In this document: in pieces, positions 5,939 to 27,403 of the stretch
How positions within the stretch are numbered: the first letter of the stretch is position 1
How the letters are laid out: every line of letters begins with the position of its first letter
Origin: Candidatus Methanoperedens sp.
GTDB lineage: Archaea > Halobacteriota > Methanosarcinia > Methanosarcinales > Methanoperedenaceae
Direction of reading: 5' to 3'
Assembly: GCA_027460535.1 (NCBI GenBank)
Contig: JAPZAR010000030.1
Location: 8,582-40,581, forward strand
Length of the DNA: 32,000 nt
Notes under the pieces: model-generated
Seen by the model: the letters and a program-made list of their open reading frames with translations, nothing else
Databases searched by the model: none
Told to the model about the DNA's origin: nothing
Translations under genes and position numbers: made by a program

Positions 5939-7141
5939 ATGAACTTTGAAGAAGTCATCGCTCTTAGGAAAGCCTTTAAGTCGGTGAAAGAAAGGCAGGC
6001 ACAGAATGTGCCCAGAGACTTTAAGGGGAGGAAAAAGAGGCTCAAAGCTGACAGGGAGTTCTGCGTCGGGAATGAAGAGCTTCTTGCGAGGACTATCGAC
6101 AAGCTCAGGAAAAACGGCATAACAGTTCATTATGTAAAGGAAAAAAATGAGGCTATAAACGTAATCCTCGATGAGATAGGAAAGGAAAAACTCGTTGTAA
6201 AGTCCAAATCCAATGTCACCAAAGAAATAGAATTGACCAAAGCTCTTGAGAAAAAAGGATTGACCGTGGTTGAGACCGATATCGGAGATCGGATCTTGCA
6301 GCTGCTACATGCGAAACCTTCCCATCCTACGGGCCCTGTAACTCACCTTTCGGCTAAAGAAATAGCACATGGACTTTCAAAACACTATGGTACGTCTATA
6401 AAGGAAACTCCGGAAGACATTGTGAGAATAGTCAGGGAGGATGTGATCCTGAACATCGGGAAGGCAAAGATCGGCATCACCGGGGCCAATGCCATAACAG
6501 CCGAGGAAGGGTCCATCGTGCTGACCCATAATGAGGGGAATATCTACGAGGTCATGAGAAAAGAAAAGCATATAGTTGTGACCTCGATAGATAAGATATA
6601 TCCCGATATCGAATCGGCGATGAACATGCTGAAAATTTTATGCTACAATGCCACGGGTTCGACCATCCCTTCTTTCGTTGAGGTGATAAGCGGGGTCAGC
6701 AAGACCGCGGATGTGGAGAAGAAATTCATAAAAGGCGTTCATTATCCTTCTGAGGTCGTCGTGGTGCTGCTGGATAATAAAAGGAGCGAGCTTGCGGCGA
6801 AAGGGTTCAAGGAACTTCTCCAGTGCGTGGGATGCGGGAATTGCCTGCTCTGCTGCCCGATGTATAATACTGTTGGCAATGAATTCGCTCTGGATAATTA
6901 CCTCGGAGGGAAAGGGATCGCATATTATTCCCTCTGCAATAACGAAAAGAACGAGAAGCTGGAACTCTGTCTCACATGCGGTAAGTGCAAAGATAATTGC
7001 CCTGTAGAACTTGATATTCCAGCTCTGATAAAAAAGATCAGAAGTGAGGGAATTTCTTCAGAGATATATTATTTTTTGAAATCGCATGCGATGTGGGTAT
7101 ATTACCAGACCTGTCTTAGATTAGGGATGGAAAGCAAGTAG
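5939..7141 (+). CDS. LUD-domain (LutB/DUF162-like) protein with C-terminal 2x[4Fe-4S] ferredoxin motifs
   Basis: 400-aa ORF with two Cys clusters, CVGCGNCLLCCP and CLTCGKCKDNCP. The preceding region (ITGANAITAEEGSIVLTHNEGN) resembles the LUD/lactate-utilisation fold. Confidence 0.75.
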   Translation: MNFEEVIALRKAFKSVKERQAQNVPRDFKGRKKRLKADREFCVGNEELLARTIDKLRKNGITVHYVKEKNEAINVILDEIGKEKLVVKSKSNVTKEIELTKALEKKGLTVVETDIGDRILQLLHAKPSHPTGPVTHLSAKEIAHGLSKHYGTSIKETPEDIVRIVREDVILNIGKAKIGITGANAITAEEGSIVLTHNEGNIYEVMRKEKHIVVTSIDKIYPDIESAMNMLKILCYNATGSTIPSFVEVISGVSKTADVEKKFIKGVHYPSEVVVVLLDNKRSELAAKGFKELLQCVGCGNCLLCCPMYNTVGNEFALDNYLGGKGIAYYSLCNNEKNEKLELCLTCGKCKDNCPVELDIPALIKKIRSEGISSEIYYFLKSHAMWVYYQTCLRLGMESK

Positions 7142-7143
7142 CA

Positions 7144-7165
7144 TGCACCGATCGAGATTTGAACC
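7144..7165 (-). repeat. Orphan fragment of the tRNA-Gly 3' end (T-loop plus 3' acceptor strand); att-like direct repeat
   Basis: Matches the tRNA-Gly 3' end at 21638-21659 at 21 of 22 positions. The upstream sequence cannot form the T-stem or the rest of a cloverleaf, so this is a fragment rather than a gene. Confidence 0.65.
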
Positions 7166-7250
7166 GCCGCCCCCGACACTCGACCCCCCGCGCAGCCGTT
7201 GCGGACTCTGCGCACTTTGCGGTGAAGCCTCCTGATTCTTGCACGGAGCC
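7166..7250 (+). repeat. GC-rich dispersed repeat, copy A (degenerate)
   Basis: Core gcagccgttgcggactctgcgcactttgcggtgaagcctcctgattcttgca (7192-7243) aligns with the cores at 14305-14365, 14644-14703 and 15705-15746. Confidence 0.8.
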
Positions 7251-7447
7251 ACACCTCCCACCAAAAATCAAGCTCCGCAGATCACCCCGCTCTCCAGCAT
7301 GGCGCCGCTCTGAATCCTGCGCTCCTGTTCGCATATTCATGGTGTTTTTGAAGCCCTCAGCATGTAACAAGGCATATCATCTCGTAAATATACTAAATAA
7401 CCTGAATAAGCAGAGAAATAAAAGAGCGGACGAAGGTTGCGGTTATC

Positions 7448-7639
7448 ATGAAAGACAGGACTCATACCGAGCATATCGAGCGATGGGCCAAATTTATAAA
7501 AACACATCCTCGCTCAATCTGGATCAGGGAGGTTGGACCTCTGATAGACGCGCAGATAATCATGGCAAATACTTTCTATGAGCGCCTCGCTAAAGTTGAA
7601 GGTGGAATTGAGAAAATAAGAAAACTAAGGAGAATCTAA
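7448..7639 (+). CDS. Hypothetical 63-aa protein co-transcribed with cas6
   Basis: ATG ORF whose TAA stop (7637-7639) directly abuts the cas6 TTG start (7640). Its 3' end contains the cas6 Shine-Dalgarno AAGGAG (7627-7632). Helical, basic sequence; no family recognised. Confidence 0.45.
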   Translation: MKDRTHTEHIERWAKFIKTHPRSIWIREVGPLIDAQIIMANTFYERLAKVEGGIEKIRKLRRI

Positions 7640-8407
7640 TTGAGAAGTAAAATAACAGTCAGAAACATCTCAAACCTTCCTGTTAATTTCGATTATCAGT
7701 ATGGTCTGGCATCAATGCTCTATTTCAAACTTGCCGGCGCGGATGTCAAGCTGGCTAACGAAACTCATGCTCATCAGGGATTCAAGTTCTATACATTCTC
7801 CAATCTTGTGTTGATGAATAGAAAAACCTGTAAATCAGGTCTTTGTTTTGAGAGGGCATATTTTATCCTGTCCTCACCTGATGACAGATTCATCAAGAGT
7901 TTTACCGAAGGTCTTCTCCAACACTCAGAATTCTATTTAGATGGACCAGACGGCAGAGCAAATTTCGTAATTGAGCGCATCGAAATACTGAAAGAACCAT
8001 CTTTAGGCGACGAGTGCTGGTTCAAGACCGTATCTCCAATCTATGTCAAGACCATGCGTAAAGAGAATGAAAGTTTGAAAGAGGTCGATCTCTATCCTAC
8101 TGAGCCGAAGTTCTACGAGAACCTCCACAAGAACCTGACAGAACGCTTCACTGAATTTTATGGCAAAGCACCCCTTGATCATTTCGATGTAATTGAAACT
8201 GAGGGCATCAAGCCAAAGCGCATCAAAATATCAGAAGGCTATAGGCGATGCAATCTCATGAGTCTGCGAATCCAGGCAAGTCCTGAGCTTTTGAAGTTCG
8301 CTTACGATGCAGGGCTTGGGGAGAAGAATGCGATGGGGTTCGGATGTGTGGATGTTGTGGATCAGGGTCAACATATGAAAAATTTAACCGCAGATAAACG
8401 CAGATGA
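7640..8407 (+). CDS. cas6: Cas6 CRISPR repeat endoribonuclease
   Basis: 255-aa RAMP-like ORF. N-terminus MRSKITVRNISNLPVNFDYQYGLASMLYFKL and the C-terminal glycine-rich loop GLGEKNAMGFGCV are Cas6 hallmarks. TTG start lies 7 nt after AAGGAG. Position at the head of a I-B locus supports the call. Confidence 0.85.
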   Translation: MRSKITVRNISNLPVNFDYQYGLASMLYFKLAGADVKLANETHAHQGFKFYTFSNLVLMNRKTCKSGLCFERAYFILSSPDDRFIKSFTEGLLQHSEFYLDGPDGRANFVIERIEILKEPSLGDECWFKTVSPIYVKTMRKENESLKEVDLYPTEPKFYENLHKNLTERFTEFYGKAPLDHFDVIETEGIKPKRIKISEGYRRCNLMSLRIQASPELLKFAYDAGLGEKNAMGFGCVDVVDQGQHMKNLTADKRR

Positions 8408-8417
8408 ACGCAGATTT
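8388..8417 (-). repeat. Inverted fragment of the GC-rich repeat family overlapping the cas6 stop
   Basis: ccgcagataaacgcagatgaacgcagattt, a 10-nt cagatNaacg motif repeated about 3 times. Its reverse complement aaatctgcgttcatctgcgtttatctgcgg aligns with aaatctgcgttaatctgtgaaatctgcgg at 14754-14782. Confidence 0.65.
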
Positions 8418-8503
8418 ATTAATTGGGCTCTACATTCCGATTACCTGCAAGAAAGCCAAACTAAGAGATGTGCGGGAAAATAGTTTCACCCCGCTCCACA
8501 AAG

Positions 8504-8511
8504 TTTTATAA
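8504..8511 (+). promoter_or_regulatory. TATA box for the zinc-ribbon ORF / interference operon (leaderless start)
   Basis: TTTTATAA is centred about 29 nt upstream of the in-frame ATG at 8536. This is the usual archaeal TATA-to-TSS spacing and implies a leaderless or near-leaderless mRNA. Confidence 0.4.
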
Positions 8512-8535
8512 CCTCGCAGTTAATTTAAAGTGTTG

Positions 8536-8976
8536 ATGATGGTGGAGAAAAGAGGTGGAAAAGCAAAGAGCACAAAAATGTTGACAGTAGCATGCTCTAT
8601 CTGCGGCATGGACATGGACTGCCCGGAATCGATGCTGGGGGCGGAGCGGCATTTCTGCGCGCAATGTACTGATCTCATGGCTGAAGGCTATGAGCCTGAG
8701 GAACTGAAGATGAGCCCTGAGGATATAGCGCAGCATTTGCCCGGATGCGATGAGGTATCAATGCTGTTGATGGATCTTACCTTCGATGGCTACTGGAATA
8801 AAGTGCTGGAATACGGTATAGAGCATTTTGATAATGAAAGGCTTGCGAAACAGAGCTATCTCCGGGGGGCAACTTCGATGCTGGGGCTTTTGATAAGTGC
8901 GGGGATGCCGCCGGAGTTTCTGGATGAACTGGCGGAGGGGATAAGGGGGGAGAGGAGGATGGGGGAGGGGAAGTGA
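8536..8976 (+). CDS. Zinc-ribbon protein of unknown function, first cistron upstream of cas8b
   Basis: ORF open from 8530 (GTG), with ATGs at 8536 and 8539. CxxC-x18-CxxC motif (CSICGMDMDCPESMLGAERHFCAQC) followed by a helical acidic domain. The TGA stop (8974-8976) overlaps the cas8b GTG (8973) / ATG (8976). GC-rich, unlike the downstream cas genes. Confidence 0.55.
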   Translation: MMVEKRGGKAKSTKMLTVACSICGMDMDCPESMLGAERHFCAQCTDLMAEGYEPEELKMSPEDIAQHLPGCDEVSMLLMDLTFDGYWNKVLEYGIEHFDNERLAKQSYLRGATSMLGLLISAGMPPEFLDELAEGIRGERRMGEGK

Positions 8977-8978
8977 TG
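8926..8978 (-). repeat. Inverted, imperfect copy of the left end of the GC-rich repeat
   Basis: gaactggcggaggggataaggggggagaggaggatgggggaggggaagtgatg aligns colinearly with the reverse complement of 14268-14318 (gaactggcggcgcgggggtgagggaggatggggggcgggggagtggatgtg). The first 10 nt are identical. The gag(g)aggatggggg and agtg(g)atg blocks are conserved, with indels between them. Confidence 0.55.
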
Positions 8979-10367
8979 AATAACGATATCGAAATGAGAA
9001 ATGAATTTGTTGGGGATCCAATCGTTGATTCCGGTTTGCTCGCAATTAAATTATTGGGAAATAAAGAAATAAATGACTGTTCAAAAGAAGAATTAAAAAA
9101 GATTACAGATGAACTTATTGAGCTTTATCTAACACCTGCTTGGTCAAAAGATATTTTATCCATATTTCCAAATAGCACTTATGTTCAATATGCCAAGAAT
9201 TATGATAGAGAAGGAAAGTCCAAAGAGTTTCTATATGAATTAATAGAAGGTTTAGATAAATCTGAAAATGATGGGGATTATTGTATTTTTTGTGGGAAAC
9301 ATGCATACAAGAGGAAAGATAATAAACCTTTCGTCAAAACACAAATACCTTTAGTCGGTTCATCTGATTTTACTAATTTTTCCCCATCATTTAAAAATGG
9401 CATTGATATTTGTGCAAAATGCGCTTTGGCAATTCAATTTGCACCTATTCTATTTTATAAAACTGGTGGAAAACCAAGTTGCATAAGCTGTAACAATACG
9501 GACGTTATGAAAACATTTGGAGAAGAATGTATAGGATATATTACTCAAAAAAAATTACTGGGTGGTTATAAATCCAAAGACGTTTCTGGCATATTTGATG
9601 AAGGTTTTAAATCAACACAAAATGCCTTGTTTCATTTAGCATATAAAACCTCTACAAAATATAAAAAGTTGGGACTTTTAAAACAAAACGAAGAAATTGT
9701 AATATATCGCGTTGATAATTACAATCAAAATCCGGCCGGAGTTACAATACATAAAATACCGAATAATATATTCAGATTTGTTATCAATGTGATGACAAGT
9801 CCTCAATATAAAAAAAATTGGTATGATTTACTTTCAAAACATTATGCGAAATCTGATGCAAAAAGTGATTTTCCAGTCTGGAAAGTCAGTTATAATAGGA
9901 TTCATGATTCTTTATTAAAAAATGAAAGCATATTATGGGCTTTCAGAGATGATAACGAAAAGAAACCAACATTACCATGGATTATAGTTGAGTCCTATAT
10001 GGAGTTAGTGAGAAATATGAATAAACAGAGAATTGAGGGTATCAAAAATCTGGCTGATAAAATCGCCATCTGCATCGAAGAGAATAATAATAAAAAGAGA
10101 GTTAATGATATTATTTCAGCCAGAGATTTTCCAACTTTTAGAAATCAATTGAGATTAGTTTTCAGGGATTGGCAAAAATTAGGTAAGGAGCAACCTATGA
10201 TAACTTATGAAGATTATATCTCAGCAATCATCCCGGAAGATTATTCCAATTGGAAAGAAGTTCAGGATTTGATAATTATAAGGTTATACGAAAAATTGCA
10301 TAATATGCTATCGAGTGGAGTAATTGATGATGTCGAACAAGAAAAATCAATAGGTGATGAAGAATGA
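8973..10367 (+). CDS. cas8b: Type I-B large subunit Cas8b (Cst1-like)
   Basis: 464-aa ORF in the canonical position between cas6 and cas7. Cys pairs CIFCGKH...CAKCALAIQFAP recall the Cst1/Cas8 zinc motif. A 4-nt ATGA overlap couples it to cas7. The call rests mainly on position and size, because large subunits are poorly conserved. Confidence 0.7.
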   Translation: MMNNDIEMRNEFVGDPIVDSGLLAIKLLGNKEINDCSKEELKKITDELIELYLTPAWSKDILSIFPNSTYVQYAKNYDREGKSKEFLYELIEGLDKSENDGDYCIFCGKHAYKRKDNKPFVKTQIPLVGSSDFTNFSPSFKNGIDICAKCALAIQFAPILFYKTGGKPSCISCNNTDVMKTFGEECIGYITQKKLLGGYKSKDVSGIFDEGFKSTQNALFHLAYKTSTKYKKLGLLKQNEEIVIYRVDNYNQNPAGVTIHKIPNNIFRFVINVMTSPQYKKNWYDLLSKHYAKSDAKSDFPVWKVSYNRIHDSLLKNESILWAFRDDNEKKPTLPWIIVESYMELVRNMNKQRIEGIKNLADKIAICIEENNNKKRVNDIISARDFPTFRNQLRLVFRDWQKLGKEQPMITYEDYISAIIPEDYSNWKEVQDLIIIRLYEKLHNMLSSGVIDDVEQEKSIGDEE

Positions 10368-11407
10368 AAACTATAATAGGAACTTACTTAATTGATGCGC
10401 CTTTTTCGGCGCTGAATAATCGAGGAATAGATCAGGGAGCAGCGAACGAGAATGAAGTAGCAACCAAAGTAATTCAATCTCCAGAAGGAATGAGGCCATA
10501 CGTTTCAGCACAAGCGTTAAGATACTGGTGGAGAATGGTTTTAGAAAATAAATTTGGATGGAAATGCTCACCTGTGGAAAAAATTGGAAAAAATCAAGCT
10601 GTTACTAAAGGTGATCCGCTGGAATACGATGATGATGATATTTTTGGGTATATGAGTGCCAGAAAAATTGATACGGGAGAGAAGGATAAAAGTGATAAGC
10701 CAAAGATGGAAAATGTAACCGTGACAAGGGTATCTCCATTAAAATGCTCGCCTTTAATTGGATTTCCAATACGACCTACTTCAGATTTTGGTGTATTAGT
10801 GAGAAAACTTGAAACTGATCCAATACTTTTTACTCATCAATTTTATAGCAATATCTTTAAAGGTATTTTTGCGCTGGATATTGATTCCGTAGGGAAATTC
10901 ACAACAATTGATAAACCTGGTAGCAAAAACTTGTCAAAAGACCTTGCAGAAAAATATGAAAAAAATGGATTAAAAAAAGATGAAAAAACATATTCACTTC
11001 CGTTAGAAAAAAAGAAGACGCGAATTTCTGATACCATTAAAGCCTTGAAGTTTTTGAATGGCGGGGCAATGCAGACATTGCATCATACTGATGTAACTCC
11101 CAAGTTAATTATGCTGGCAGTATTGAATAATGGAAATAACATATTCATGGATGTAATGCCTCACAATAAATACGATAATGGATTGGTCAATATCGATGCA
11201 TTATCTGAGATGTTGGAGGATTATAAGGAATCACTGTTGAGCAAAGTCTATATCGGTAAATTATCGGGTTTTGGATCAGATAAAGACAAAGAATTAGAGA
11301 GTTTCAAAGCACCATCGGGAGTTAATGTTGTAATTACGACTCCAGTTAAAGCAATAGATCAATTCATAGAGGAGATATTAACTAATAATAAAATTATTGG
11401 CGAGTAA
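10364..11407 (+). CDS. cas7: Cas7 backbone subunit (Cst2/DevR-like)
   Basis: 347-aa ORF. N-terminal IIGTYLIDAPFSALNNRG...NE...K followed by YVSAQALRYWWR matches the Cas7/DevR signature as I remember it. Sits between cas8b and cas5. Confidence 0.85.
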   Translation: MKTIIGTYLIDAPFSALNNRGIDQGAANENEVATKVIQSPEGMRPYVSAQALRYWWRMVLENKFGWKCSPVEKIGKNQAVTKGDPLEYDDDDIFGYMSARKIDTGEKDKSDKPKMENVTVTRVSPLKCSPLIGFPIRPTSDFGVLVRKLETDPILFTHQFYSNIFKGIFALDIDSVGKFTTIDKPGSKNLSKDLAEKYEKNGLKKDEKTYSLPLEKKKTRISDTIKALKFLNGGAMQTLHHTDVTPKLIMLAVLNNGNNIFMDVMPHNKYDNGLVNIDALSEMLEDYKESLLSKVYIGKLSGFGSDKDKELESFKAPSGVNVVITTPVKAIDQFIEEILTNNKIIGE

Positions 11408-11408
11408 A

Positions 11409-12062
11409 ATGGAAGTTCTTCGTGTTGAAATACGGGCAATTACAGCCTCATTTAGATACCCCATGTTTGTGGTATCTTATCAGCCTACATATAAAATTCC
11501 TCCAATATCTACGATATACGGTTTGCTCTCCGCTGCAAAGGGTGAAAAAGTCAGTATTTATGATTTATCCATTGGTTATGATTTTACATCTAGAGGAAGT
11601 GGCGTTGATCTGGAGCGCATTCTGGAGTTCGGTGGAGGAGACAAAAATAAACCCGTTTCCTATCTTGGTAGCAATATAATACACAGGGAATTTTTATATG
11701 ATTGTATATTGACATTATATATATCTGATCTAGATTTTAAACAATATTTAGAGAATCCACGTTTCACTCTTTTACTTGGAAGGCAATCAGATTTAGCTAA
11801 GATAACAAAGATAAAAGAAGTGAAATTGATTCCAAAAGAAAATGTTGAAATATATAATACAATTATACCTTTCGATGGAAGAGTGCCAGGGCAAATCGTT
11901 GCTTTACCCTCTGATTATACTGACAAAGCTGAAAGAAAACCAATTGAAGTAAGAACTTATTGTATCGTAGAATCAAAACAACAGATTGAAAGGGGATACT
12001 ATGATACTGAGCTAAATAAGGGAGTTTTTATGCATGAGTTCAACAATAAAAGCCAAAAGTAA
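11409..12062 (+). CDS. cas5: Cas5 (Cas5t/Cas5h-like)
   Basis: MEVLRVEIRAITASFRYPMFVVSYQPTYKIPPISTIYGLLSAAKG is the canonical Cas5 N-terminal motif. The track start at 11397 (TTG) is an alternative start. Confidence 0.85.
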   Translation: MEVLRVEIRAITASFRYPMFVVSYQPTYKIPPISTIYGLLSAAKGEKVSIYDLSIGYDFTSRGSGVDLERILEFGGGDKNKPVSYLGSNIIHREFLYDCILTLYISDLDFKQYLENPRFTLLLGRQSDLAKITKIKEVKLIPKENVEIYNTIIPFDGRVPGQIVALPSDYTDKAERKPIEVRTYCIVESKQQIERGYYDTELNKGVFMHEFNNKSQK

Positions 12063-14214
12063 TGGCGAATCACTTGAAGAACATATAAATAATTGCCTTA
12101 ATATTTTTGCTCAACTAAAGGATATTTATCCAGATTTACAAAAATTTACAAATTATCCTTCTTTTTATAGTGATGCTTTTGATGCTTTGTTTTTTCATGA
12201 TTTTGGTAAAGCTGCAGAAGGTTTTCAAAAATCATTATCTCCAAAAGGAGAAAAATGGAAGTATAGGCATGAAATTCTTTCAACACCTTTTATTAACTGC
12301 CTGAACAAAGAAAATCTCGATTTTGTCAAGATCTTAGTGCTAACTCACCATAAAGATATTAATAAATTAGTCGAATATATTGAAGATAATGATTTTTTGG
12401 GGATTCGTTATGAAGAACGATTAGAGGAAATCAAACCTAATATAAATGCACTGAATGAAATAATAAAGAAATATCCAGAAATCTCTAAAAAGATATTAGG
12501 CTCAATAGAATGCAAGGTCGATATTATAGAGAAAATATCAAAAGATAAGTCGATATGGGAGGAAATAATACAAAAGAAAAGAATGAACTTTTCATCAAAA
12601 ATAGGAATCTTTGGAAAAGGGATGATAAATTCTTGTGATTATTTAGCTTCAAGTGGGATAAAAAAGATACTTAAACCACTACCAAGCTTGAGTGAAGTAT
12701 ATAATTTTAAGTCCTTTACGAGTGTTCAGGCAAAATGTTTATCAACAAAAGGTAATGCGATAATTATTTCACCAACTGGTTCTGGAAAAACGGAAGCATC
12801 TCTGTTCTGGGCTACAAATAATCTCGATAAATCACAAGGAAATAGAATATTTTATGTTTTACCCTACACTGCGAGTATAAACGCAATGTATAGGCGATTA
12901 TTGATGAAATTAAGCCCATATTATTCAGATGATGGTTGTGTATCGCTATTACATGGAAAAGCGACTTATTTTTTATATAAGATGTTCGAGGATGGTGATT
13001 TTAGAGAAATACATAATTTATCTAAAAAAATTTATAGTCCATACAAAGTAATGACGCCTTTTCAATGTTTAAAACACTTCTTTTCATTGAAAGGATATGA
13101 GATGGGATTATTAGAAATGTACCGCGGGAGATATATTTTTGATGAGATACACTCCTATGATGCCAAAACAGCGGGATTGATATTATCAATGTGCGAGTAT
13201 TTGATAGAAGAGAATGATGCTAAGATATTGATAATGTCTGCAACGATGCCATCATTTCTGAAAAATATGTTTTTAGATAATCTTCATATTGAAAATGAAA
13301 TGGTTATGGATAAAAAAGAGTTGAGCAAATACCTTCGCCACAAATGCAAGATAATCGATGGAGATATCCTTGAAAATATTGATTTAATAATAAAAAGATT
13401 GCAGAATAAAGAAAAAGTATTGGTTGTGTGTAATACAGTAAATAGAGCCCAGGATGTTTATAAATTATTGAGAGATGAAGTTAACGACTCTGCTTTGTTG
13501 CATGGCAGATTTATCTTGAAAGATAGAGAAGCAATTGAAAAAAATCTTGAAAATCTGAATTTATTAGTGGGTACACAAGTCATTGAAGTTTCATTGGATA
13601 TCGATTATGATGTATGTTTCTCTGAACCAGCTCCAATTGATGCTTTAATTCAGCGATTTGGAAGAATTAACAGACGAAAAAACAGCGATGGATTACCACT
13701 CAAAGGCATTTGCGATGTATTTGTTTTTTCAAAAGGTTCTGAAAATGATCGATATATCTATGATACAGAGATTGTAAATAAAACTTTAAAAGTTCTCAAT
13801 GAAATTGATTTATTGTTTGAAGATAAATTATATGAAGCAGTCGATGAAATATACATTAATGGTTTTGGCGATAAACTAAAAGAATTTGAAGATACCAAAA
13901 CTTCATTTAGAAAAATGATAGATCGTATAGTACCTTTCAATAATTCAAACACAAAAGAATCAGACTTTTATGATTTATTTAATTCCATAGAAGCGGTTCC
14001 TGAAAAATATCGGCATGAATATCTTGATTGTATCCGAAATAAAAAGTTATTCGATGCTATGCAATATTGTCTGCAATTAACGAACGGTCAATTTCAAAAA
14101 CTACTCAAAGAAGGACGGGTTGATTTCGAAAAAAAGATTTTTATAGAGGCAAAGTATGATCCAGAATTGGGATTATTGATAAATGAACATGAAGAGAATC
14201 AAAATATAATATAA
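12034..14214 (+). CDS. cas3: Cas3 HD nuclease-helicase fusion
   Basis: 726-aa ORF. N-terminal HD motifs (FFHDFGK, YRHEILS, LTHHK). SF2 helicase motifs I SPTGSGKTE, II FDEIHSYD, III MSATMP and VI QRFGRINRR. Overlaps the cas5 end by 29 nt. Confidence 0.92.
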   Translation: MSSTIKAKSNGESLEEHINNCLNIFAQLKDIYPDLQKFTNYPSFYSDAFDALFFHDFGKAAEGFQKSLSPKGEKWKYRHEILSTPFINCLNKENLDFVKILVLTHHKDINKLVEYIEDNDFLGIRYEERLEEIKPNINALNEIIKKYPEISKKILGSIECKVDIIEKISKDKSIWEEIIQKKRMNFSSKIGIFGKGMINSCDYLASSGIKKILKPLPSLSEVYNFKSFTSVQAKCLSTKGNAIIISPTGSGKTEASLFWATNNLDKSQGNRIFYVLPYTASINAMYRRLLMKLSPYYSDDGCVSLLHGKATYFLYKMFEDGDFREIHNLSKKIYSPYKVMTPFQCLKHFFSLKGYEMGLLEMYRGRYIFDEIHSYDAKTAGLILSMCEYLIEENDAKILIMSATMPSFLKNMFLDNLHIENEMVMDKKELSKYLRHKCKIIDGDILENIDLIIKRLQNKEKVLVVCNTVNRAQDVYKLLRDEVNDSALLHGRFILKDREAIEKNLENLNLLVGTQVIEVSLDIDYDVCFSEPAPIDALIQRFGRINRRKNSDGLPLKGICDVFVFSKGSENDRYIYDTEIVNKTLKVLNEIDLLFEDKLYEAVDEIYINGFGDKLKEFEDTKTSFRKMIDRIVPFNNSNTKESDFYDLFNSIEAVPEKYRHEYLDCIRNKKLFDAMQYCLQLTNGQFQKLLKEGRVDFEKKIFIEAKYDPELGLLINEHEENQNII

Positions 14215-14267
14215 AATTGCATCAAGAAATCTCATCTCTTATTGCGTTTCATATGGTGTCGCCCTGC

Positions 14268-14897
14268 CACATCCACTCCCCCGCCCCCCATCCTCCCTCA
14301 CCCCCGCGCCGCCAGTTCTTTGCGGACTCTGCGCCCTTTGCGGTGATGCCTCCTGATTCTTGCATGGCACCGCATGGAAAAACATCCTAGCAAATGCGAT
14401 ATATCCCATGCAATAAATCCGCGTTCATAAACCGGAACTTCGGTTTACGCAGTGTTGGGGTATGCGAAGCATATCCCTCGTTTGATAAAACTTTCATAAA
14501 GTTTTGCGTCCATCTGCGGTTTCGTTTTTCGCAGAAGCGCCGGAAATTTATCGCATTCTGTTTATAAAATTTCACCTCAAAGACTGTAAGGAGCCCGCCC
14601 TCCTGCACGTTCTTCCCCGACCCGCCGATACGCGCTCACTTCCGCGCCGCCTGCTCTTTGCGGACTCTGCGCGCTTTGCGGTGGTGCTCCCTGATTCGTG
14701 CACAGCGCCGCAGAAAAAAACAGTCTGAAGAGTGCGATATATGCCCTTGCAATAAATCTGCGTTAATCTGTGAAATCTGCGGATTCGTTTTTCGGAGAGT
14801 GATTAACCATTGTTCTCTGGAATATTTTTTGCGTTTTTGTGGTTGCTCCGGTCTCCATGAAGCGCCAGAAATTTATCTGGTGCTATATATATAATTC
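14268..14897 (+). repeat. Two tandem ~330-bp units of the GC-rich repeat family
   Basis: Unit cores begin with ctttgcggactctgcgc at 14318 and 14656. Each core is followed by a hairpin (14340-14373 and 14678-14711) and a tgcgatatat..tgcaataaatc(c/t)gcgtt block. Each unit ends in gaagcgcc(g/a)gaaatttatc (14534-14573 and 14859-14897). Confidence 0.85.
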
Positions 14898-14970
14898 TTT
14901 CTAAAAATTTATTGAAGCACAGTAAAATTTTGTGATAAGGCGTCTGAGGTTGTTTTGATCCATAACAATG

Positions 14971-15000: not shown

Positions 15001-15231
15001 ATGGCTGAATTGAAAGTTACCATTCCTGAAGAACTCTGGAGAAAAATGGCAAGCTTTGAAATAGACTGGCATGCGATCACCAGAGATCTTCTCAAAAAGA
15101 AAGTCAATGAACTGAGTGATTTGAAATCCATTGTTTCCAAAAGCAAGATGACCGACGAGGATGCGTTAGAGCTTGGTAGAAAGGTTAATAAATCACTTGC
15201 AAAAAAATTCAAAACTTCAGCGATGGGATAA
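15001..15231 (+). CDS. VapB-type antitoxin (small, helical; partner of the PIN toxin)
   Basis: 76-aa ORF directly abutting the PIN gene (TAA then ATG). The pattern KVTIPEEL...W....R......V.......I..KSKMTDEDALELGRKV is what I recall for archaeal PIN-associated antitoxins. Confidence 0.6.
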   Translation: MAELKVTIPEELWRKMASFEIDWHAITRDLLKKKVNELSDLKSIVSKSKMTDEDALELGRKVNKSLAKKFKTSAMG

Positions 15232-15654
15232 ATGCTCCTCATTGTTGATGCCAACGTTGTTTTTTCGGTTCTCATAAAAGGTGGGAAAACATTAGACATT
15301 TTTTTTTTGAATAAAGCTAAAAAAAGATTTGATTTTGTAGCTCCTGAATTTCTTATGGTGGAAGTTGAAAAACACACCAGTGAGATTATTAAGAAAACTG
15401 GACTTTCAACAGAAGAGATTGGAAAGGTGTTTGATTTTCTTGAAAAAGAAATTGAATTTGTTTCATTTGAAGAGTTTGAAGAATTCTATAAAGAAGCAGA
15501 GCAAATATCTCCTGATCCCAATGATGTTCAGTATTTTGCGCTTGCTATGAAATTAAATGGGGCTATTTGGTCTAATGACAAGGCATTAAAAAAGCAGTTT
15601 GTAGTTGATGTGCTATCTACAGGGGAAATAATAAAATTAATGGAATTTGAATAG
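15232..15654 (+). CDS. vapC: PIN-domain ribonuclease toxin (VapC-like)
   Basis: 140-aa ORF. N-terminal acidic motif LIVDANVVFSVLIKGG, a mid glutamate (APEFLMVEVEKH), and the C-terminal motif DPNDVQYFALAMKLNGAIWSNDKAL. Confidence 0.8.
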   Translation: MLLIVDANVVFSVLIKGGKTLDIFFLNKAKKRFDFVAPEFLMVEVEKHTSEIIKKTGLSTEEIGKVFDFLEKEIEFVSFEEFEEFYKEAEQISPDPNDVQYFALAMKLNGAIWSNDKALKKQFVVDVLSTGEIIKLMEFE

Positions 15655-15676
15655 TTCATATTGTATTATTTTGTTA

Positions 15677-15760
15677 TCCCCCGCTCCCCATCCTCCCTCA
15701 CCCCCGCGCCGCCAGCTCTTTGCGGACTCTGCGCCCTCTGCGGTGGGTACGATTCGTACC
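15677..15760 (+). repeat. GC-rich repeat, copy E, ending in a 15-bp palindrome
   Basis: cccccgctccccatcctccctcacccccgcgccgccagctctttgcggactctgcgccctctgcggtg aligns with 14279-14345. The hairpin of the other copies is replaced by the palindrome GGTACGAtTCGTACC (15746-15760). Confidence 0.8.
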
Positions 15761-15828
15761 AATCTGTGCAAGGACAAAGAGTCATCTAAAAAGATGAACC
15801 CAACCGTATATTTCATTCATCCCAAACC

Positions 15829-15877: not shown

Positions 15878-16477
15878 ATGAAATTCCACAATGTTCTTGA
15901 CGAGATATTAGGCAATAGAACAAAGGTGAAGCTGCTAAGGGCATTTTTCACCTATCTTGAAAAAGAATTCACAGAAAGCGAACTCCAGAGGATAGCGGGG
16001 ATACCGCAGGCGAGCGTTCACAGGAACGTAAAGTTTCTCCTCGCGAATGGACTTCTTGACAGGGAACGCATCGGAAAGGCAAATCTGTATTCGCTGAACA
16101 AAGAGCATATTCTTTATGCTCTTCTACAGAACATTTTTGAGAATGAAAAAAACCTTCTCTCTGAACTTAAAAAGTCGCTTAAAGGTTCGATTGAAAGCTT
16201 TTCTGGGATAGAGTTAGCAGTACTCTTCGGAAGCGTTTTAAAAGGCACTGAGAGAGCGGACAGCGATATAGATATTTTCATCGTCTGTAAAGCAGATAAA
16301 TCACAGGTGGAAGAAGAGATGAAAAACCTGATCCAGGTTATCGGAAATAAATTCGGAAACCCGGTATCGCCGATGATAAAGAATGATACAGAGATGAAAG
16401 ACATAAGAAGCAGTTCAATATACAAAGAATTAAAAAGAGGTGAAGTACTCTTTAAGCGCGAGGGATTTGAATGGTGA
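15878..16477 (+). CDS. Winged-helix DNA-binding domain fused to a minimal (Pol-beta superfamily) nucleotidyltransferase
   Basis: 199-aa ORF. The N-terminal part (TKVKLLRAFF...FTESELQRIAGIPQASVHRNVKFLLANGLLDRERIGKANLYSLN) looks like a wHTH. The C-terminal part carries the NTase motif LFGSVLKGTERADSDIDIFIV (G[SG]...D.D). Confidence 0.8.
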   Translation: MKFHNVLDEILGNRTKVKLLRAFFTYLEKEFTESELQRIAGIPQASVHRNVKFLLANGLLDRERIGKANLYSLNKEHILYALLQNIFENEKNLLSELKKSLKGSIESFSGIELAVLFGSVLKGTERADSDIDIFIVCKADKSQVEEEMKNLIQVIGNKFGNPVSPMIKNDTEMKDIRSSSIYKELKRGEVLFKREGFEW

Positions 16478-16562: not shown

Positions 16563-17129
16563 ATGAATCCGCAAGATGTAACTTTGGAAGAAAAAGAAAG
16601 ACCCCAACCTGAAGACATCATGGCCGGTGCCATGCGCATCACAGGCATTAAAGTAACATACTACTTCATCTGCCATACCAAACTCTGGCTGTTTTCGCAC
16701 AATATCACGCTTGAGAAAGAGAATGACAATGTGAATATTGGAAAACTCCTGCATGAAGACCGCTATAAGCGCGACTCAAAAGAGATAACAATCGACCAGA
16801 CGATAAGCATCGATTTCATCCGGAAGGGTGATACCATTGTTCTCCATGAAATAAAAAAAACAAAAAGCATGGAAGTGGCACATCGCTGGCAGATGCTATA
16901 TTACCTGTATTACCTGAAATCAAAAGGTATCAGCGCCACAGGCGAAATAAATTATCCCCTCGTTAGCAGGAAAGAAGAGATAGTGCTTCTTGAAAAAGAT
17001 GAATTGGAAATGGAAAATGTGATAAATGATATCAGGAAGATCGCAATGGGAAGGATGCCGCAACCTAAAAGGATAAAGATCTGCCCGAAATGCGCTTATT
17101 TCGAATTCTGTTTTGGAGATGAAGTATGA
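16563..17129 (+). CDS. cas4: Cas4 RecB-like nuclease with Fe-S cysteines
   Basis: [18 protein letters not shown] supplies the N-terminal Cys. Nuclease motifs IDF...LHEIKK. C-terminal [10 protein letters not shown] supplies three Cys. The true start may be the internal ATG at 16620 or 16632. An ATGA overlap couples it to cas1. Confidence 0.85.
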
Positions 17130-18115
17130 AGGAAGATTATTATATCACACAGGACGGCGGCCTTACAAGGCATGAAAATACGGTATATTTCGAGAACGAA
17201 AACACAAAACGCGCCCTTCCGGTAAATAAGATATACTCAATATACGCATACGGCAGGCTCAGCTTTTCATCCGGGGTCGTGGATTATCTTGCAAAGAGCG
17301 GGATACCGATACACTTCTTTAATTATTATGGTTTTTACGAAGGCTCATTCTATCCGCGCGAAACGCTGATAAGCGGCGATCTGACCGTGAAGCAGGCATC
17401 GAATTATCTCGACAGCGCAAAGAGACTGATACTTGCAAAATCCTTTGTTGAAGGCGCTTGCGGCAATATCCTGAAAAATCTCAACTATTACGCGCGGGAG
17501 ATGAAAAGTCTTGAAACACATATCAGCGGCATCGAATCCGAGATCGCGAGACTGCCGGGGACAGCAACTATCCCTGAGGTCATGAATGTAGAAGGACGGA
17601 TAAGGAATATTTATTATACGGCGCTTGATGAGATATTCCCTGAGAATTACAGGATAATCAAAAGGTCAAGGATGCCGCCGGCGAACAGGATGAACACGTT
17701 AATCAGTTTCGGGAATTCCCTGATGTACACAACAACTCTTTCGGAAATATACAATACCCAGTTAAACCCCACTATTTCTTTCCTTCATGAGCCATTTGAA
17801 AGGAGATTCTCGCTTGCTCTTGATGTAAGCGAGATATTCAAACCCATAATTATCGACAGGATCATCCTGAAGCTTGTGAATAAGAACATGCTTGACGATG
17901 CTTGTTTCAGGGGGGAGATAGGAGATATGCTGCTCAGTGAAAAAGGGAAAAAGCTGTTCCTGGCAGAATATAATGAGAAGCTTTCCACAACTATCAAACA
18001 CAGAGGACTGGAACAAAATGTTTCTTTCAAACGGCTTATAAGACTTGAATTGTATAAACTCGTGAAGCATTGCCTTGGTGAAAAGGATTACAAACCTCTC
18101 ATTATGTGGTGGTAA
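17126..18115 (+). CDS. cas1: Cas1 integrase
   Basis: 329-aa ORF with the typical Cas1 layout. N-terminal beta domain ([19 protein letters not shown]), then the catalytic helical domain ([11 protein letters not shown]...[12 protein letters not shown]...[22 protein letters not shown]). Confidence 0.95.
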
Positions 18116-18381
18116 TCTTGTATGTAATAATTGTTTATGATGTGGGGGTGGAAAGGGTGAACAAGGTGAGGATTTACCTCAAGCAGTATCTTAATTGGGT
18201 GCAGAATAGTGTGCTGGAAGGGGAGCTTACAGAACCTGAATACATGAAGATAATGAATGGGCTCAGGGATGTAATAGATGAATCCCAGGATAATGTTATC
18301 TGTTATAAATCGAGAGATCGGAAGTATCTCGCTATTGATGAAATAGGAACTAAAAAGGCTGAGATCACAACAATAATCTGA
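18106..18381 (+). CDS. cas2: Cas2
   Basis: [36 protein letters not shown] is the canonical Cas2 N-terminus. GTG at 18106 overlaps the cas1 stop. TTG at 18118 (giving MYVIIVYDV) is an equally plausible start. Confidence 0.9.
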
Positions 18382-18576
18382 TGTCGATGATCTAAAGTCG
18401 TGGATCTTTATAAAGCAAATACAAAACCTGGGATGCACGACTGAAAATTCTATTTTTGCAAAGGTTTTTGTGGAATGAGTTCTATTTATATTTGAGAGAA
18501 AATCAATAGACGATACCTGAAAAATTGTCTGTTTTTTCAACCAAATTCAACCGAAAATCCAGCTGGAAAAAGCTTG
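18382..18576 (+). promoter_or_regulatory. CRISPR leader (AT-rich) with candidate TATA boxes
   Basis: 195-bp AT-rich spacer between cas2 and the first repeat. TATA-like TTTATAAA around 18406-18413 and TTTATATT around 18484-18491. Orientation follows from the repeat 3' handle ATTGAAAT. Confidence 0.6.
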
Positions 18577-21408
18577 GTTAAAATCAGCCCTTGGAGGGAT
18601 TGAAATCCTGGAGGAAATGCTCTTGCCTAAATCTGTTATAAAGTTAAAATCAGCCCTTGGAGGGATTGAAATACGTAGATGTACCCGGTGTTCGCGTCAA
18701 GGTTTGTCAGTTAAAATCAGCCCTTGGAGGGATTGAAATACTATATACGTGCATACATACATAGATATGTATGCTGGTTAAAATCAGCCCTTGGAGGGAT
18801 TGAAATTATTCTGCTCCTCAGGCGATGCCGCCTTCCTTGAGGTTAAAATCAGCCCTTGGAGGGATTGAAATGGCGGTGATCGTATGAAATGCATCCACGC
18901 GATATATCGTTAAAATCAGCCCTTGGAGGGATTGAAATATGATATGGTGCCTTGTGCGCGAGGGCAGCCTCCTTGGTTAAAATCAGCCCTTGGAGGGATT
19001 GAAATGACTCTCCGGCGCTGAGCCTTTGGCTGCTGTATCACGTTAAAATCAGCCCTTGGAGGGATTGAAATTACTGAGATCGTGAAGCTGCGAACGCCCC
19101 TGGGGAGCGTTAAAATCAGCCCTTGGAGGGATTGAAATGTGTGAGCCCGAACTTTTCCGAGGTCAGTTCCGCCAGTTAAAATCAGCCCTTGGAGGGATTG
19201 AAATCGTGGTACCACGTGCTCCCCTCAACCCCATAGCGTGCGTTAAAATCAGCCCTTGGAGGGATTGAAATACGGAACGAACACGCACAAAATCCGTCGT
19301 GGCGTTATGTTAAAATCAGCCCTTGGAGGGATTGAAATAAGGCAAAACGCTCGAACAGGATCACCTTCATGGACGGTTAAAATCAGCCCTTGGAGGGATT
19401 GAAATCTGCGTATGCAGTGCGTTTCCGATCTTGTTCACGCGTTGTTAAAATCAGCCCTTGGAGGGATTGAAATTCTCTATGATCCTTATGATCGGGGGTT
19501 CATACTACCAGTTAAAATCAGCCCTTGGAGGGATTGAAATTTAAGACTATGTCGTCTTTTGAGCAGATCGGTAAGAAGTTAAAATCAGCCCTTGGAGGGA
19601 TTGAAATATATCTGTTTTTTCAGATATAGAAATTTTGAAATATTGTTAAAATCAGCCCTTGGAGGGATTGAAATATCATAATTATTATGTTTTGAGAGTA
19701 GATCATAAGGAGTTAAAATCAGCCCTTGGAGGGATTGAAATGTCTCAGCACAGACGACAAGCAACCAGACCTACACGAGTTAAAATCAGCCCTTGGAGGG
19801 ATTGAAATAGCGATGTAAAGAACATCCAGGGAGCGCACTTCAAATGTTAAAATCAGCCCTTGGAGGGATTGAAATACGCCTAGGCTTTCCTTGCCTCTTC
19901 CCTGACTTCTTGTTAAAATCAGCCCTTGGAGGGATTGAAATTCACTTGTAGCCCTTGAGGAAGTTGAGCGTATCGAGGTTAAAATCAGCCCTTGGAGGGA
20001 TTGAAATCAATAAGAACCTCCTCTACCCTTGGTTGTTATTTCATGTTAAAATCAGCCCTTGGAGGGATTGAAATAGCAAACAACGATACCGAGCAGCCCG
20101 GGTAATTCTCGTTAAAATCAGCCCTTGGAGGGATTGAAATATTCGCCCTCGCTCTCGGTCATGGTTCCCTATAAAACGTTAAAATCAGCCCTTGGAGGGA
20201 TTGAAATGAAGTGGACGAGTGCGGATGGAATTGAAGTCACCATGGTTAAAATCAGCCCTTGGAGGGATTGAAATCATCAACTTGCACCTCACACTTAAGA
20301 TAATGCTCAATGTTAAAATCAGCCCTTGGAGGGATTGAAATAAGGAATGGAGATGAAGATTTCTGCAGGCATACAAGTTAAAATCAGCCCTTGGAGGGAT
20401 TGAAATACGGTTTGATGAGCTTCTTGATAAAATACAGAACCAAGTTAAAATCAGCCCTTGGAGGGATTGAAATATGCAAGGTGCTGCTACAACTGCGAAC
20501 CGTGTGAATCGTTAAAATCAGCCCTTGGAGGGATTGAAATTTATAACTACTTCGACGTTCCCGCTTGCTGTGCTGAGTTAAAATCAGCCCTTGGAGGGAT
20601 TGAAATCTTGATACTTCCTGATTGGTGAAGTTCGCCCATCCGTGTTAAAATCAGCCCTTGGAGGGATTGAAATGGGTCTTTAGCAAGCTACCTGAGTATG
20701 TGCAAAAGAATGTTAAAATCAGCCCTTGGAGGGATTGAAATATTAATCAAGCAAACCGTTCAAGGAGGAAGGCTTCGGTTAAAATCAGCCCTTGGAGGGA
20801 TTGAAATATTTCGACTGCTCCATTTGCAAATATCACGAGCGTGGTTAAAATCAGCCCTTGGAGGGATTGAAATGACAATAGTGACATACAACACAAACGG
20901 AATTGCAGGTGTTAAAATCAGCCCTTGGAGGGATTGAAATATAGCGAATCGAGGCACGACACCAAGTCCGTGCGGAAGTTAAAATCAGCCCTTGGAGGGA
21001 TTGAAATAGATTAGTTAAACTAACTAACGGCTCTGTATATGATGTTAAAATCAGCCCTTGGAGGGATTGAAATATGTAACCAAAAAAGAACCAGATGAAA
21101 TAATCCCGGCGTTAAAATCAGCCCTTGGAGGGATTGAAATCAATGATATCATAGGGATGTTGTTATATTAATCCCTTGTTAAAATCAGCCCTTGGAGGGA
21201 TTGAAATCGAATACCTGGAAACATGCCGTCATGCCCGGACGAGGGTTAAAATCAGCCCTTGGAGGGATTGAAATGTGATCAAGGCGCTCCCGGACCTCAA
21301 TGCCCTGGTCGGTTAAAATCAGCCCTTGGAGGGATTGAAATGCAGACGTAATCTTAGCTGGGGCAAGTATCCCACTTAGTTAAAATCAGCCCTTGGAGGG
21401 ATTGAAAT
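18577..21408 (+). CRISPR. CRISPR array: 43 repeats of GTTAAAATCAGCCCTTGGAGGGATTGAAAT (30 nt), 42 spacers of 35-38 nt
   Basis: I located every repeat start by hand, from 18577, 18643, 18710 ... to 21312, 21379, with a period of 65-68 nt. I noticed no repeat variants. The repeat has a CCCT-TGG-AGGG mini-hairpin and ends in ATTGAAAT. It closely resembles the Haloferax I-B repeat ...CCCTTGTGGGATTGAAGC. Confidence 0.98.
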
Positions 21409-21637
21409 GGAGTATCTATCATGTGGGCACCGAGGGCATTAATTTGCATATCTTGATGTTGATTTTGTCCGGTTAACATTTAATAAGAAATCATCAATAA
21501 ATAACCGCTGTCCATGAATATTTTAATGCTAGAAAGATGATAATAAATAGTGGATTCATTTTAGATTCTTTTGAAGCATTAGGAATCGTTCAAAAGTATC
21601 GATAATCTTTTTGCCCGGTTTTTTTTAAAACCGAAAT

Positions 21638-27295: not shown

Positions 27296-27403
27296 ACATT
27301 TTAGCCCCCTTTATTGCATTTTGTCACTCCGAATATATTACATTTTTCAAAAAATCCAGCCATTGGAAATTCTTTTTAAGCATACATGCCTTTAGCATCA
27401 CAA

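Follow-up and report, generated by a model that had tools for sequence, protein, structure and literature searches.

An AT-rich interference cassette of probably separate ancestry in the type I-B CRISPR-Cas system of Candidatus Methanoperedens

Modular evolution is general among CRISPR-Cas systems (PMC6452270), and in archaeal type I systems the exchange of adaptation and interference cassettes is especially common in subtype I-B and in the Tneap-type 'I-G' group (PMC3973734, Garrett/Shah/Vestergaard). Chimeric CRISPR loci have also been described for elements of Methanoperedens; there, a type I/type III-A hybrid of host-like GC content is carried by a circular jumbo element (PMC13444090). The locus analyzed here lies in a 32,000-nucleotide (nt) stretch of DNA from Candidatus Methanoperedens (the window) and is a complete type I-B CRISPR-Cas system, the interference genes of which, cas8b-cas7-cas5-cas3 (positions 8973–14214; the cassette), are AT-rich. 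It is likely that this locus consists of two parts with separate ancestry, a framework of host-like composition and a cassette that belongs to an AT-rich lineage, that exchange of the latter is ongoing, and that the inverted, GC-rich arms on either side of it are not its termini. Related loci, designated by L-numbers, were retrieved via relatives of Cas3, and each of their Cas proteins was compared with that of the window; a scan of genome contigs with a Cas3 alignment was dominated by the generic Walker-A pattern, and most of the loci it brought up were distant bacterial ones, those of use being L010–L013, L025, L030, and L033.

The cassette has a GC content of 31.6%, the remaining window one of 45.0%; in windows of 500 nt the interior of the cassette ranges from 0.288 to 0.366, while the exterior has a mean of 0.450 (standard deviation 0.054). 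GC content at third codon positions (GC3) is 0.237–0.287 in cas8b, cas7, cas5, and cas3, 0.45–0.51 in cas6, cas4, cas1, and cas2, and 0.617 in the open reading frame (ORF) of a zinc-ribbon protein, which overlaps the cas8b start. In adjacent bins of 30 nt, GC drops from 0.70 (8946–8975) to 0.27 (8976–9005) at the left border and climbs from 0.27 (14214–14243) to 0.57 and then 0.77 (14244–14303) at the right one. The sharp borders that a preliminary description of this DNA had placed at the start of cas8b and just past the stop of cas3 are, thus, real, with GC switching within ~30 nt of each. The GC values sampled there were reproduced both inside the cassette (21.7% at 9061–9120, 28.3% at 12061–12120, 35.0% at 13201–13260) and upstream of it (56.7% at 8581–8640, 61.7% at 8881–8940); only the ~62% given for copA was too high, as this gene overall has 50.5%.

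An AT-rich cassette among GC-normal cas genes recurs in ten or more related loci, which belong to several genera. GC3 of the cassette versus that of adjacent cas genes and flanks is 0.22–0.27 versus 0.41–0.57 in Methanolobus (L005), 0.29–0.35 versus 0.50–0.54 in L092, 0.26–0.36 versus 0.65–0.74 in L007, 0.32–0.39 versus 0.49–0.69 in L008, 0.35–0.47 versus 0.52–0.62 and 0.44–0.52 versus 0.66–0.73 in two Methanoregula loci (L011 and L012, respectively), and 0.22–0.25 versus 0.37–0.42 in a locus of Methanobacteriaceae (L013); cas3 of a Methanosarcinaceae locus (L010) has 0.27–0.28 next to flanking genes of ~0.5, and in Methanosarcina thermophila (L094) the cassette is modestly AT-richer than the flanking genes. 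There is no GC step in L025 and L033, the hosts of which are uniformly AT-rich or GC-rich, and in Methanoculleus (L093) the entire locus is AT-richer than the genome. The preliminary description had taken congruent phylogenies and a common GC pattern in related I-B loci as grounds to prefer selection on composition over transfer; the pattern is indeed common, but transfer is not refuted by it, given that the phylogenies conflict at the same time.

In the tree of the concatenated cassette, the window forms a clade with L090, L095, L092, L005, L007, and L008 (100% bootstrap). In the tree of Cas1, with or without Cas4, the window groups with L090, L095, L092, and L005 and with the Methanobacteriales loci L013 and L025 (97–100%); there, L008 is found with the Methanomicrobiales loci, in a clade of L008, L011, L012, and L093 (83–87%), and each tree gives 0% to the grouping of the other. 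Identities to the proteins of the window follow the same division. L008 has 70–78% in the cassette but 51% in Cas1, 49% in Cas4, and 23% in Cas6, and it has a different repeat and inverted adaptation genes; L007 has 62–74% in the cassette versus 51% in Cas1. The reverse applies to L013, with 33–46% in the cassette, 62% in Cas1, and 37% in Cas6. Cas6 of the window is 34–37% identical to that of L013 and L025 and 22–25% to that of L008, L011, L012, and L093; it tracks Cas1, not the cassette. So do the CRISPR repeats, which group with the Cas1/Cas6 framework: the repeat GTTAAAATCAG(C/A)CCTT(G/A)GAGGGATTGAAA(T/C) is common to the window, L005, L095, and L102, and a different family is present in L008, L011, L012, and L093. 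In M. thermophila the array (L094, 508–6536) has the repeat GTTAAAATCAGACCTTAGAGGGATTGAAAC, which is off that of the window at 3 of 30 positions and equals that of Methanolobus L005 except for the last base; despite this near-identity the interference proteins are only 32–45% identical to those of the window.

The marks of an exchanged module, that is, tree incongruence, a repeat and a Cas6 that track the adaptation module, and a divergence break at the module borders, are all present, and the earlier proposal that the history of the cassette differs from that of cas6 and of cas4-cas1-cas2 with the array is borne out by the tree conflict at 83–100% bootstrap, by repeats and Cas6 following Cas1, and by the contrast in synonymous divergence (dS) described below. 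The junction between cassette and framework is old because Methanolobus L005 and L092 share the composite architecture of the window, including the GC step, at 65–80% protein identity.

Cassette DNA moves between Methanoperedens lineages by recombination, with the cas8b start and the junction of the cas3 stop and the adjoining intergenic repeat as recurrent tract ends. Between Methanoperedens genomes, dS of the cassette is 3–5 times below that of the flanks: relative to L090 it is 0.18–0.34 in the cassette and 0.85–0.90 in cas4 and cas1; relative to L091, 0.34–0.44 in the cassette and 0.84 in the zinc-ribbon ORF; relative to L095, 0.21–0.31 in the cassette, 0.68 in cas4, 0.81 in cas1, 1.66 in cas2, and 1.23 in the zinc-ribbon ORF, with cas6 being saturated (its product is 78% identical, and the proportion of synonymous differences, pS, is at saturation). 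Nucleotide identity to L095 increases from ~0.65 to ~0.95 at ~8950 and decreases from 0.95 to ~0.5 right after the cas3 stop (step at 14216); as it breaks at the cassette edges, the divergence step and the composition step coincide. A constraint to use A- or T-ending codons was considered as the cause of the low dS and rejected: composition-neutral changes at fourfold-degenerate sites are equally reduced, roughly 2.5–10 times lower in the cassette than in the flanks (A/T transversions 0.04–0.05 versus 0.15–0.21; G/C transversions 0.02–0.06 versus 0.21–0.22), and the AT-rich cas8b reaches a dS of 0.73.

The latter value is from L095 and L103, two Methanoperedens metagenome-assembled genomes (MAGs) with the same upstream neighborhood, for which four syntenic housekeeping genes served for calibration. 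Their dS is 0.24–0.32 for the housekeeping genes, 0.46 for cas6, 0.03–0.08 for cas7, cas5, and cas3, and 0.73 for cas8b; a tract of ~3.6 kb with 97–100% identity extends from mid-cas7 to the cas3 stop, and cas8b of L103 is a divergent allele (75–77% amino acid identity, dS 0.70–0.73). In the direct comparison of L103 and L095, the cas8b products (6943–8334 in each) are 75% identical and those of the downstream cas7-cas5-cas3 98.5–98.8%. This contrast suggests, at the level of sequence, that an allele of the subunit reading the protospacer-adjacent motif was replaced. A sliding comparison of four cassettes revealed further mosaic segments, for example in the region of cas3 encoding the HD domain. 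Cas3 is normally a fast-evolving protein; here it is 91–98% identical in many MAGs, while ThiC of other NCBI-sourced Methanoperedens among the best 120 matches is at most 88% identical to that of the window. Of the earlier notion that the cassette was imported or swapped as a unit, the separate history has held up; the unit has not, because some recombination tracts have their ends within the cassette and a divergent allele may take the place of cas8b, as in L103, so that the cassette does not always travel whole.

According to the classical genomic-island model, AT-rich islands that were acquired horizontally ameliorate. Third-position changes were polarised by parsimony along the terminal branches that lead to four closely related cassettes (a three-taxon version was also run), which gave 169 changes from AT to GC and 118 from GC to AT (0.589, or 1.4:1). 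A flank-like regime acting at a GC3 of 0.245 predicts 0.755 (~3:1), from which the observed fraction differs with p=6e-10; cas4 and cas1, taken together as a control, are balanced (83:94). The equilibrium GC3 implied for the cassette is ~0.32, an estimate which is raised by parsimony bias. The excess of about 3:1 expected for a recent island under amelioration is, thus, not observed, and the cassette is near its own AT-rich equilibrium. A single recent import, as envisaged in the preliminary description, is contradicted by this flux and by the recurrence of the composite locus in L005, L092, and about ten loci altogether. Either the lineages diverged mostly within a generally AT-rich mobile gene pool, or selection holds the composition. 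It is a tentative idea, and rather an unlikely one, that a module-specific force keeps the cassette at a GC3 of ~0.25–0.32 beside cas genes of ~0.5 in five or more host genera, even though it has been transferred repeatedly; such a force would be new to CRISPR, with an AT-rich, Borg-like reservoir re-seeding the loci, or selection throttling or conditioning expression of the nuclease complex, as candidates.

The most likely course of events is one in which a framework of cas6, cas4-cas1-cas2, and the array, of host-like composition and akin to the I-B loci of Methanobacteriales and Methanosarcina, was combined with an interference cassette of the Cst1/Cst2/Cas5t type from another lineage, which is AT-rich wherever it is found. 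The two were joined before the loci of Methanoperedens, Methanolobus, and L092 split; afterwards, cassette sequence has kept moving among Methanoperedens lineages, with tracts ending at the cas8b start, at the cas3 stop, and also internally, and the AT-richness would be a standing property of the lineage and not the fading scar of one recent import. The crRNA (CRISPR RNA) handle is the part that is read by the Cas5/Cas7/Cas8 complex. The repeats of the two families share an 8-nt handle at their ends, ATTGAAAT/C, and plausibly the cassette works with either family for this reason.

Several points weigh against this reconstruction. The trees are neighbour-joining trees of 13 loci, made from simple distances with 200 bootstraps; genome-wide divergence was calibrated in one pair of genomes, L095 and L103, which does not include the window itself, and the host assignments of L090, L091, and L092 are presumptive. 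The direction of the ancient swap, that is, whether the cassette entered the framework or the framework was assembled around the cassette, would have to be read from tree shape only, and that the swap was tolerated through the shared handle may be surmised from the repeats. Although parsimony in AT-rich sequence slightly inflates AT-to-GC changes, a small net drift towards GC persists in the cassette (0.589 versus 0.5, p=0.003), and a degree of amelioration may be under way. Lastly, the searches of IMG/VR and PLSDB yielded neither a donor nor an AT-rich vehicle.

Were there no transfer at all, the locus would have been inherited vertically, and its cassette would be kept AT-rich by selection alone (for example, for low expression through rare codons or for a limited toxicity of Cas3) or by a local mutational bias alone. 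A GC step in every related locus whose host is not itself AT-rich agrees with such a force, which may well help to maintain the composition given fluxes near balance at a GC3 of ~0.25–0.32. It leaves unexplained, however, the strongly supported tree conflict, the repeats and Cas6 tracking Cas1, and a dS of cas7 to cas3 that is 3–8 times below that of flanks or housekeeping genes while the equally AT-rich cas8b is at 0.73; vertical descent is, for these reasons, improbable. The other extreme, a single recent insertion whose donor was an AT-rich archaeon or plasmid and whose termini or scars are the inverted arms, draws on the sharp borders and on the arms themselves. The left arm (8926–8978, forward strand) comprises the G-rich 3′ end of the zinc-ribbon ORF, the ribosome-binding region, and the cas8b start; the right arm (14268–14318, forward strand) is the C-rich 5′ end of the first of two intergenic repeat units. 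The reverse complement of 8900–8990 aligns with 14269–14318 over 55 columns with four small gaps and a score of 41, which is reached by none of 500 dinucleotide shuffles (22.3 ± 3.7), so that in the window the similarity indeed exceeds that of shuffled G-rich sequence, and a second inverted pair, 8377–8420 and 14751–14793 (score 41; shuffles 17.7 ± 2.3, maximum 27), also brackets the region. Yet, in the three relatives that keep both borders the pairing is at chance level (32/500 in L095, 149/500 in L091, 18/500 in L096). The left arm contains the codons for the C-terminal end of the zinc-ribbon product, ...PPEFLDELAEGIRGERRMGEGK, a tail that is conserved at the protein level in the closest family members and runs into the ribosome-binding region and start codon of cas8b, and this arm has no match to the 5′ ends of other repeat copies; the right arm belongs to a multi-copy repeat that also follows the LUD-domain and PIN genes. 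The 9 nt outside the arms, TTTCTGGAT and TTTGCGGAC, are identical at 6 of 9 positions and, hence, no exact duplication. Among the ORFs of the window, scans with NCBIfam, Pfam, and PADLOC found no transposase or integrase, and neither an integrase, a tRNA border, nor direct repeats delimit the cassette, which with terminal inverted repeats that are not conserved in relatives does not resemble a transposon or insertion sequence. Considering, in addition, the flux of 1.4:1 where ~3:1 is expected, the same composite locus in Methanolobus and L092 at 65–80% identity, and the lack of a close relative of the cassette in PLSDB and IMG/VR, one recent insertion is scarcely credible. The arms, said before to bracket the cassette, were concluded not to be its termini; their pairing in this strain reflects either a chance resemblance of a Gly/Glu/Arg-rich coding tail to the C-rich start of a repeat or a local conversion event.

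A third possibility is that the long-term home of the cassette is an unsampled, AT-rich extrachromosomal replicon of Methanosarcinales or Methanoperedens, Borg-like with ~33% GC, from which chromosomal loci are re-seeded. This would account for a low divergence together with an unameliorated composition, that is, for a near-balanced flux combined with low dS; the 30–35% GC of the cassette fits that of Borgs, which is ~33% versus 40–44% in Methanoperedens (PMC13444090; PMC9605863), and effector-only CRISPR modules are carried by Borgs and other elements (PMC9605863). Nine of the 18 best Cas3 matches are on contigs of about cassette length (5.37–5.69 kb), as assemblies tend to break at the cassette edges; at least in this strain, however, the flanking multi-copy repeat explains such breaks, and all long contigs that were retrieved have GC-normal flanks. 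Moreover, the CRISPR systems reported for Borgs are of type III-A, not I-B (PMC9605863), and a Borg origin of the cassette was rejected on these reports. Carriage by viruses or plasmids was rejected as well: no relatives of the cassette turned up in IMG/VR, which was scanned both with the single Cas7 sequence and with an alignment of Cas7, and the search for it on plasmids that the preliminary description had proposed gave only distant matches in PLSDB (at most 37% identity). We, thus, give little credence to such a replicon and regard an old composite of framework and cassette, with continued exchange of the latter, as the likely explanation.

The arms and the module junctions are connected to a family of intergenic repeats of ~330 nt, which is specific to this group of Methanoperedens loci, varies in copy number among strains, and occupies most module junctions. 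Four copies are present in the window, all in one orientation: one after the LUD-domain gene, two in tandem after cas3, and one after the PIN gene. The tandem units (14271–14624 and 14624–14906, together 14271–14906, forward strand) were identified by repeat finding and nhmmer. The copy between the LUD-domain gene and cas6 (7168–7354, forward strand) consists of the 5′ and core parts (nhmmer with repeat unit 1, E=1.6e-10), with the core CTTTGCGGACTCTGCGCNCTTTGCGGTG matching 7197–7224 with one mismatch; the third downstream copy (15677–15785, forward strand; E=1.4e-13) also consists of the 5′ and core parts. The C-rich start of the right arm, CCCCATCCTCCCTCACCCCCGCGCCGCC, recurs at 15686–15713 and in copies of L097 and L102, and the 3′ part of the repeat contains a TATA-like motif (TTTATAAAA/TATATATATAA). 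An inverted fragment of the middle part (AATAAATCTGCGTTCATCTGCG...) lies at 8377–8420 (reverse strand), overlapping the cas6 stop. Cas6 of the window has 255 amino acids versus 244 in L095, the extra C-terminus (…KNLTADKRR) of ~11 codons being encoded by 8374–8407, and the longer ORF appears to be due to insertion of this fragment. The metagenome contigs L001 and L004 terminate at the same fragment, with L004 corresponding to window positions 8391–14473. That the arms are a relic of an inverted zinc-ribbon 3′ end was also considered; read as its reverse complement, the right arm stays in frame with the ORF tail from ELA to MG, but the resemblance breaks off at GAACTGGCGG, and there is a stop codon in between.

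In other strains, L090 has a truncated repeat copy of ~70 nt alone after cas3, and its homology to the window ends at the third downstream copy (end of the blastn high-scoring segment pair at 15679); L095 has three copies (12216–12355, 13653–13946, 15583–15713) that punctuate toxin-antitoxin genes; in L097 five or more units stand in tandem (1963–3301); and in L099–L101 two copies bracket a PIN/UPF0175 pair. In L099, a stretch of 72% GC with long overlapping ORFs (1–1750) abuts a repeat copy and the AT-rich PIN/UPF0175 pair; this may be a chimera of metagenome assembly or an insertion of foreign DNA. That the repeat is a structured RNA or an attC-like site was rejected, since RNAalifold on 16 copies found four invariant pairs without covariation; single sequences fold no better than shuffles (z-scores of −0.81 and −0.22), and an Rfam scan of the window identified tRNA only and no family matching the repeat. 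The units look more like portable terminator/promoter spacers than recombination sites.

The Cas8b, Cas7/Cas5, and Cas3 proteins, as well as cas6, cas4-cas1-cas2, and the array, all conform to a type I-B system of the Cst1/Cst2/Cas5t ('Tneap') type; for interference activity and crRNA loading of the complex, the shared 3′ end of the repeats, ATTGAAAT/C, is only suggestive. All cas genes and the array are on the forward strand, beginning with cas6 (7640–8407; TIGR01877, 153.9 bits; GC3 0.457) and the zinc-ribbon ORF (8530–8976; 148 amino acids; GC3 0.617). The cassette consists of cas8b for the large subunit (8973–10367; TIGR01908, Cas8b1/Cst1, 111.5 bits versus a cut-off of 19.4; GC3 0.237), cas7 (Cst2/DevR; 10364–11407; TIGR02585, 181.5 bits; GC3 0.287), cas5 of the Cas5t type (11397–12062; TIGR01895, 139.9 bits; GC3 0.257; public annotations, as in the gene calls of L003, place the start at 11409), and cas3 (12034–14214; TIGR01587, 275 bits; TIGR01596, 70.5 bits; GC3 0.237). 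Cas3, of 726 amino acids, is a fusion of HD nuclease (TIGR01596, residues 14–207) and DExH helicase (TIGR01587, residues 243–590) in a single protein, and its cluster has 33 members at ≥90% identity spread over several Methanoperedens MAGs. The adaptation genes are cas4 (16563–17129; TIGR00372; GC3 0.476), cas1 (17126–18115; TIGR03641, 473 bits; GC3 0.509), and cas2 (18106–18381; TIGR01573; GC3 0.457); they are followed by the array (18576–21409) with 43 copies of the 30-nt repeat GTTAAAATCAGCCCTTGGAGGGATTGAAAT. L003, a contig of an NCBI MAG, encodes Cas proteins identical to those of the window, yet its array (11043–13873) differs by indels, which argues for spacer turnover.

Cas3, Cas1, Cas6, ThiC, and other proteins of the window have exact counterparts among the proteins of Methanoperedens MAGs, on contigs of up to 121,826 bp. 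The locus is chromosomal, as its neighbors in the window are ordinary housekeeping genes, namely those for CopA, a Na+/H+ exchanger, the LUD-domain protein, PspA, HerA, ThiC, a Hel308-type helicase, and UPP synthase. An ORF of 63 codons (7448–7639, forward strand) without family match terminates exactly at the cas6 start, and a tRNA gene (21637–21708, reverse strand) is located ~230 nt past the last CRISPR repeat. Further 3′ of the array, a HerA-type ATPase (DUF87; 22923–24629) and a Hel308-like helicase (27386–29605) match the HerA and HamB models of PADLOC; these are probably housekeeping paralogues and not defence genes.

The zinc-ribbon gene is translationally coupled to cas8b. Its product has four cysteines (CxxC...CxxC) and a helical, three-helix C-terminal domain, and belongs to a small family (58 representatives at E≤1e-3; a homologue is encoded at 4805–5455 of L007), the close members of which conserve the CxxC...CxxC motif and a tail of the form ...PPEFLDE..R..(K/R)(K/R)MxxGEGK. 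It has no match in Pfam, NCBIfam, or PADLOC, and its AlphaFold2 (AF2) model (mean confidence, pLDDT, of 83) has no fold match in the PDB at E<0.1. It diverges fast, with 52–64% identity and a ratio of nonsynonymous to synonymous divergence (dN/dS) of ~0.3 where the cassettes are 88–98% identical, and it shares only 52–59% with orthologues that lie beside cassettes of 88–96% identity; judged from its sequence, it may be a regulator or arms-race partner of Cas8b. The gaps between cas6 and cas8b and between cas3 and cas4 are slots for variable cargo (15001–15654 in the window, 12359–15617 in L095, 12561–13347 in L103, 12600–15870 in L007, 806–1512 in L092), which across relatives includes RHH-PIN, TumE/MJ0235, UPF0175, DUF3368, Fic, HEPN-nucleotidyltransferase, and AAA_14 ATPases. 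In the window, an RHH antitoxin (15001–15231; PF26688) and a PIN toxin (15232–15654; PF10130; GC3 0.255), both on the forward strand, form a second AT-rich island with repeat copies on both sides; dS of this pair is 0.20–0.23 to L090, similar to that of the cassette, and 0.56–0.59 to L095. The subsequent gene (15878–16477, forward strand) encodes a helix-turn-helix (HTH) and nucleotidyltransferase protein, MntA-like (NF047752, PF18765, PF01909), for which PADLOC gives PDC-M05A, a candidate defence family (E=2.7e-26), along with weak matches to Csa3-type HTH models. The gene has no adjacent HEPN partner; it is absent from L090 and L095, where other genes occupy the cas3–cas4 slot.

The locus provides a clean and quantified example of how archaeal CRISPR systems are reassembled: species exchange the module for surveillance and DNA cleavage more quickly than their genomes diverge, and divergent alleles replace Cas8b. 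What remains with the host are cas6, the genes for adaptation, and the array. As spacers of Methanoperedens are used to link Borgs, plasmids, and viruses to their hosts, it is of practical relevance that similarity of cas3 or cas7 is a poor marker of host relatedness, and the persistent AT-richness of the module bears on the question of what sets the base composition of mobile defence genes.

Of the known arrangements to which the locus can be compared, arrays of the integron type or of miniature inverted-repeat transposable elements have in common with it that the ~330-nt repeat follows the LUD, cas3, and PIN blocks and, also in L095 and L099–L101, brackets toxin-antitoxin pairs; unlike in integrons, the window contains no tyrosine recombinase or integrase, and the repeat has neither a conserved hairpin nor covariation. 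Ameliorating islands share low GC3, sharp borders at gene boundaries, and a different phylogenetic history, but here the signature of amelioration is weak (1.4:1, not ~3:1) and the step survives 25–35% protein divergence across genera. With the chimeric loci of Methanoperedens elements (PMC13444090) it shares the genus and the property that parts of the locus have their best matches in different Methanoperedens genomes; the locus in the window, however, is a chromosomal I-B locus, and its interference part is AT-rich. Closest is the modular exchange in archaeal type I systems (PMC3973734): there as here, an interference cassette is combined with non-cognate adaptation genes, cas6, and repeats, the Cas1 and interference trees are incongruent, and the Cst1/Cst2/Cas5t cassette corresponds to the Tneap-type 'I-G' group. 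The basic phenomenon is, thus, a known one, of which this locus is a well-resolved case; what differs is the sharp and persistent composition step and the recombination tracts calibrated by housekeeping genes, and, as the term 'GC content' does not occur in the available portion of that paper, the persistence of the step across genera, together with the near-balanced flux, seems to go a little past the literature to that extent.

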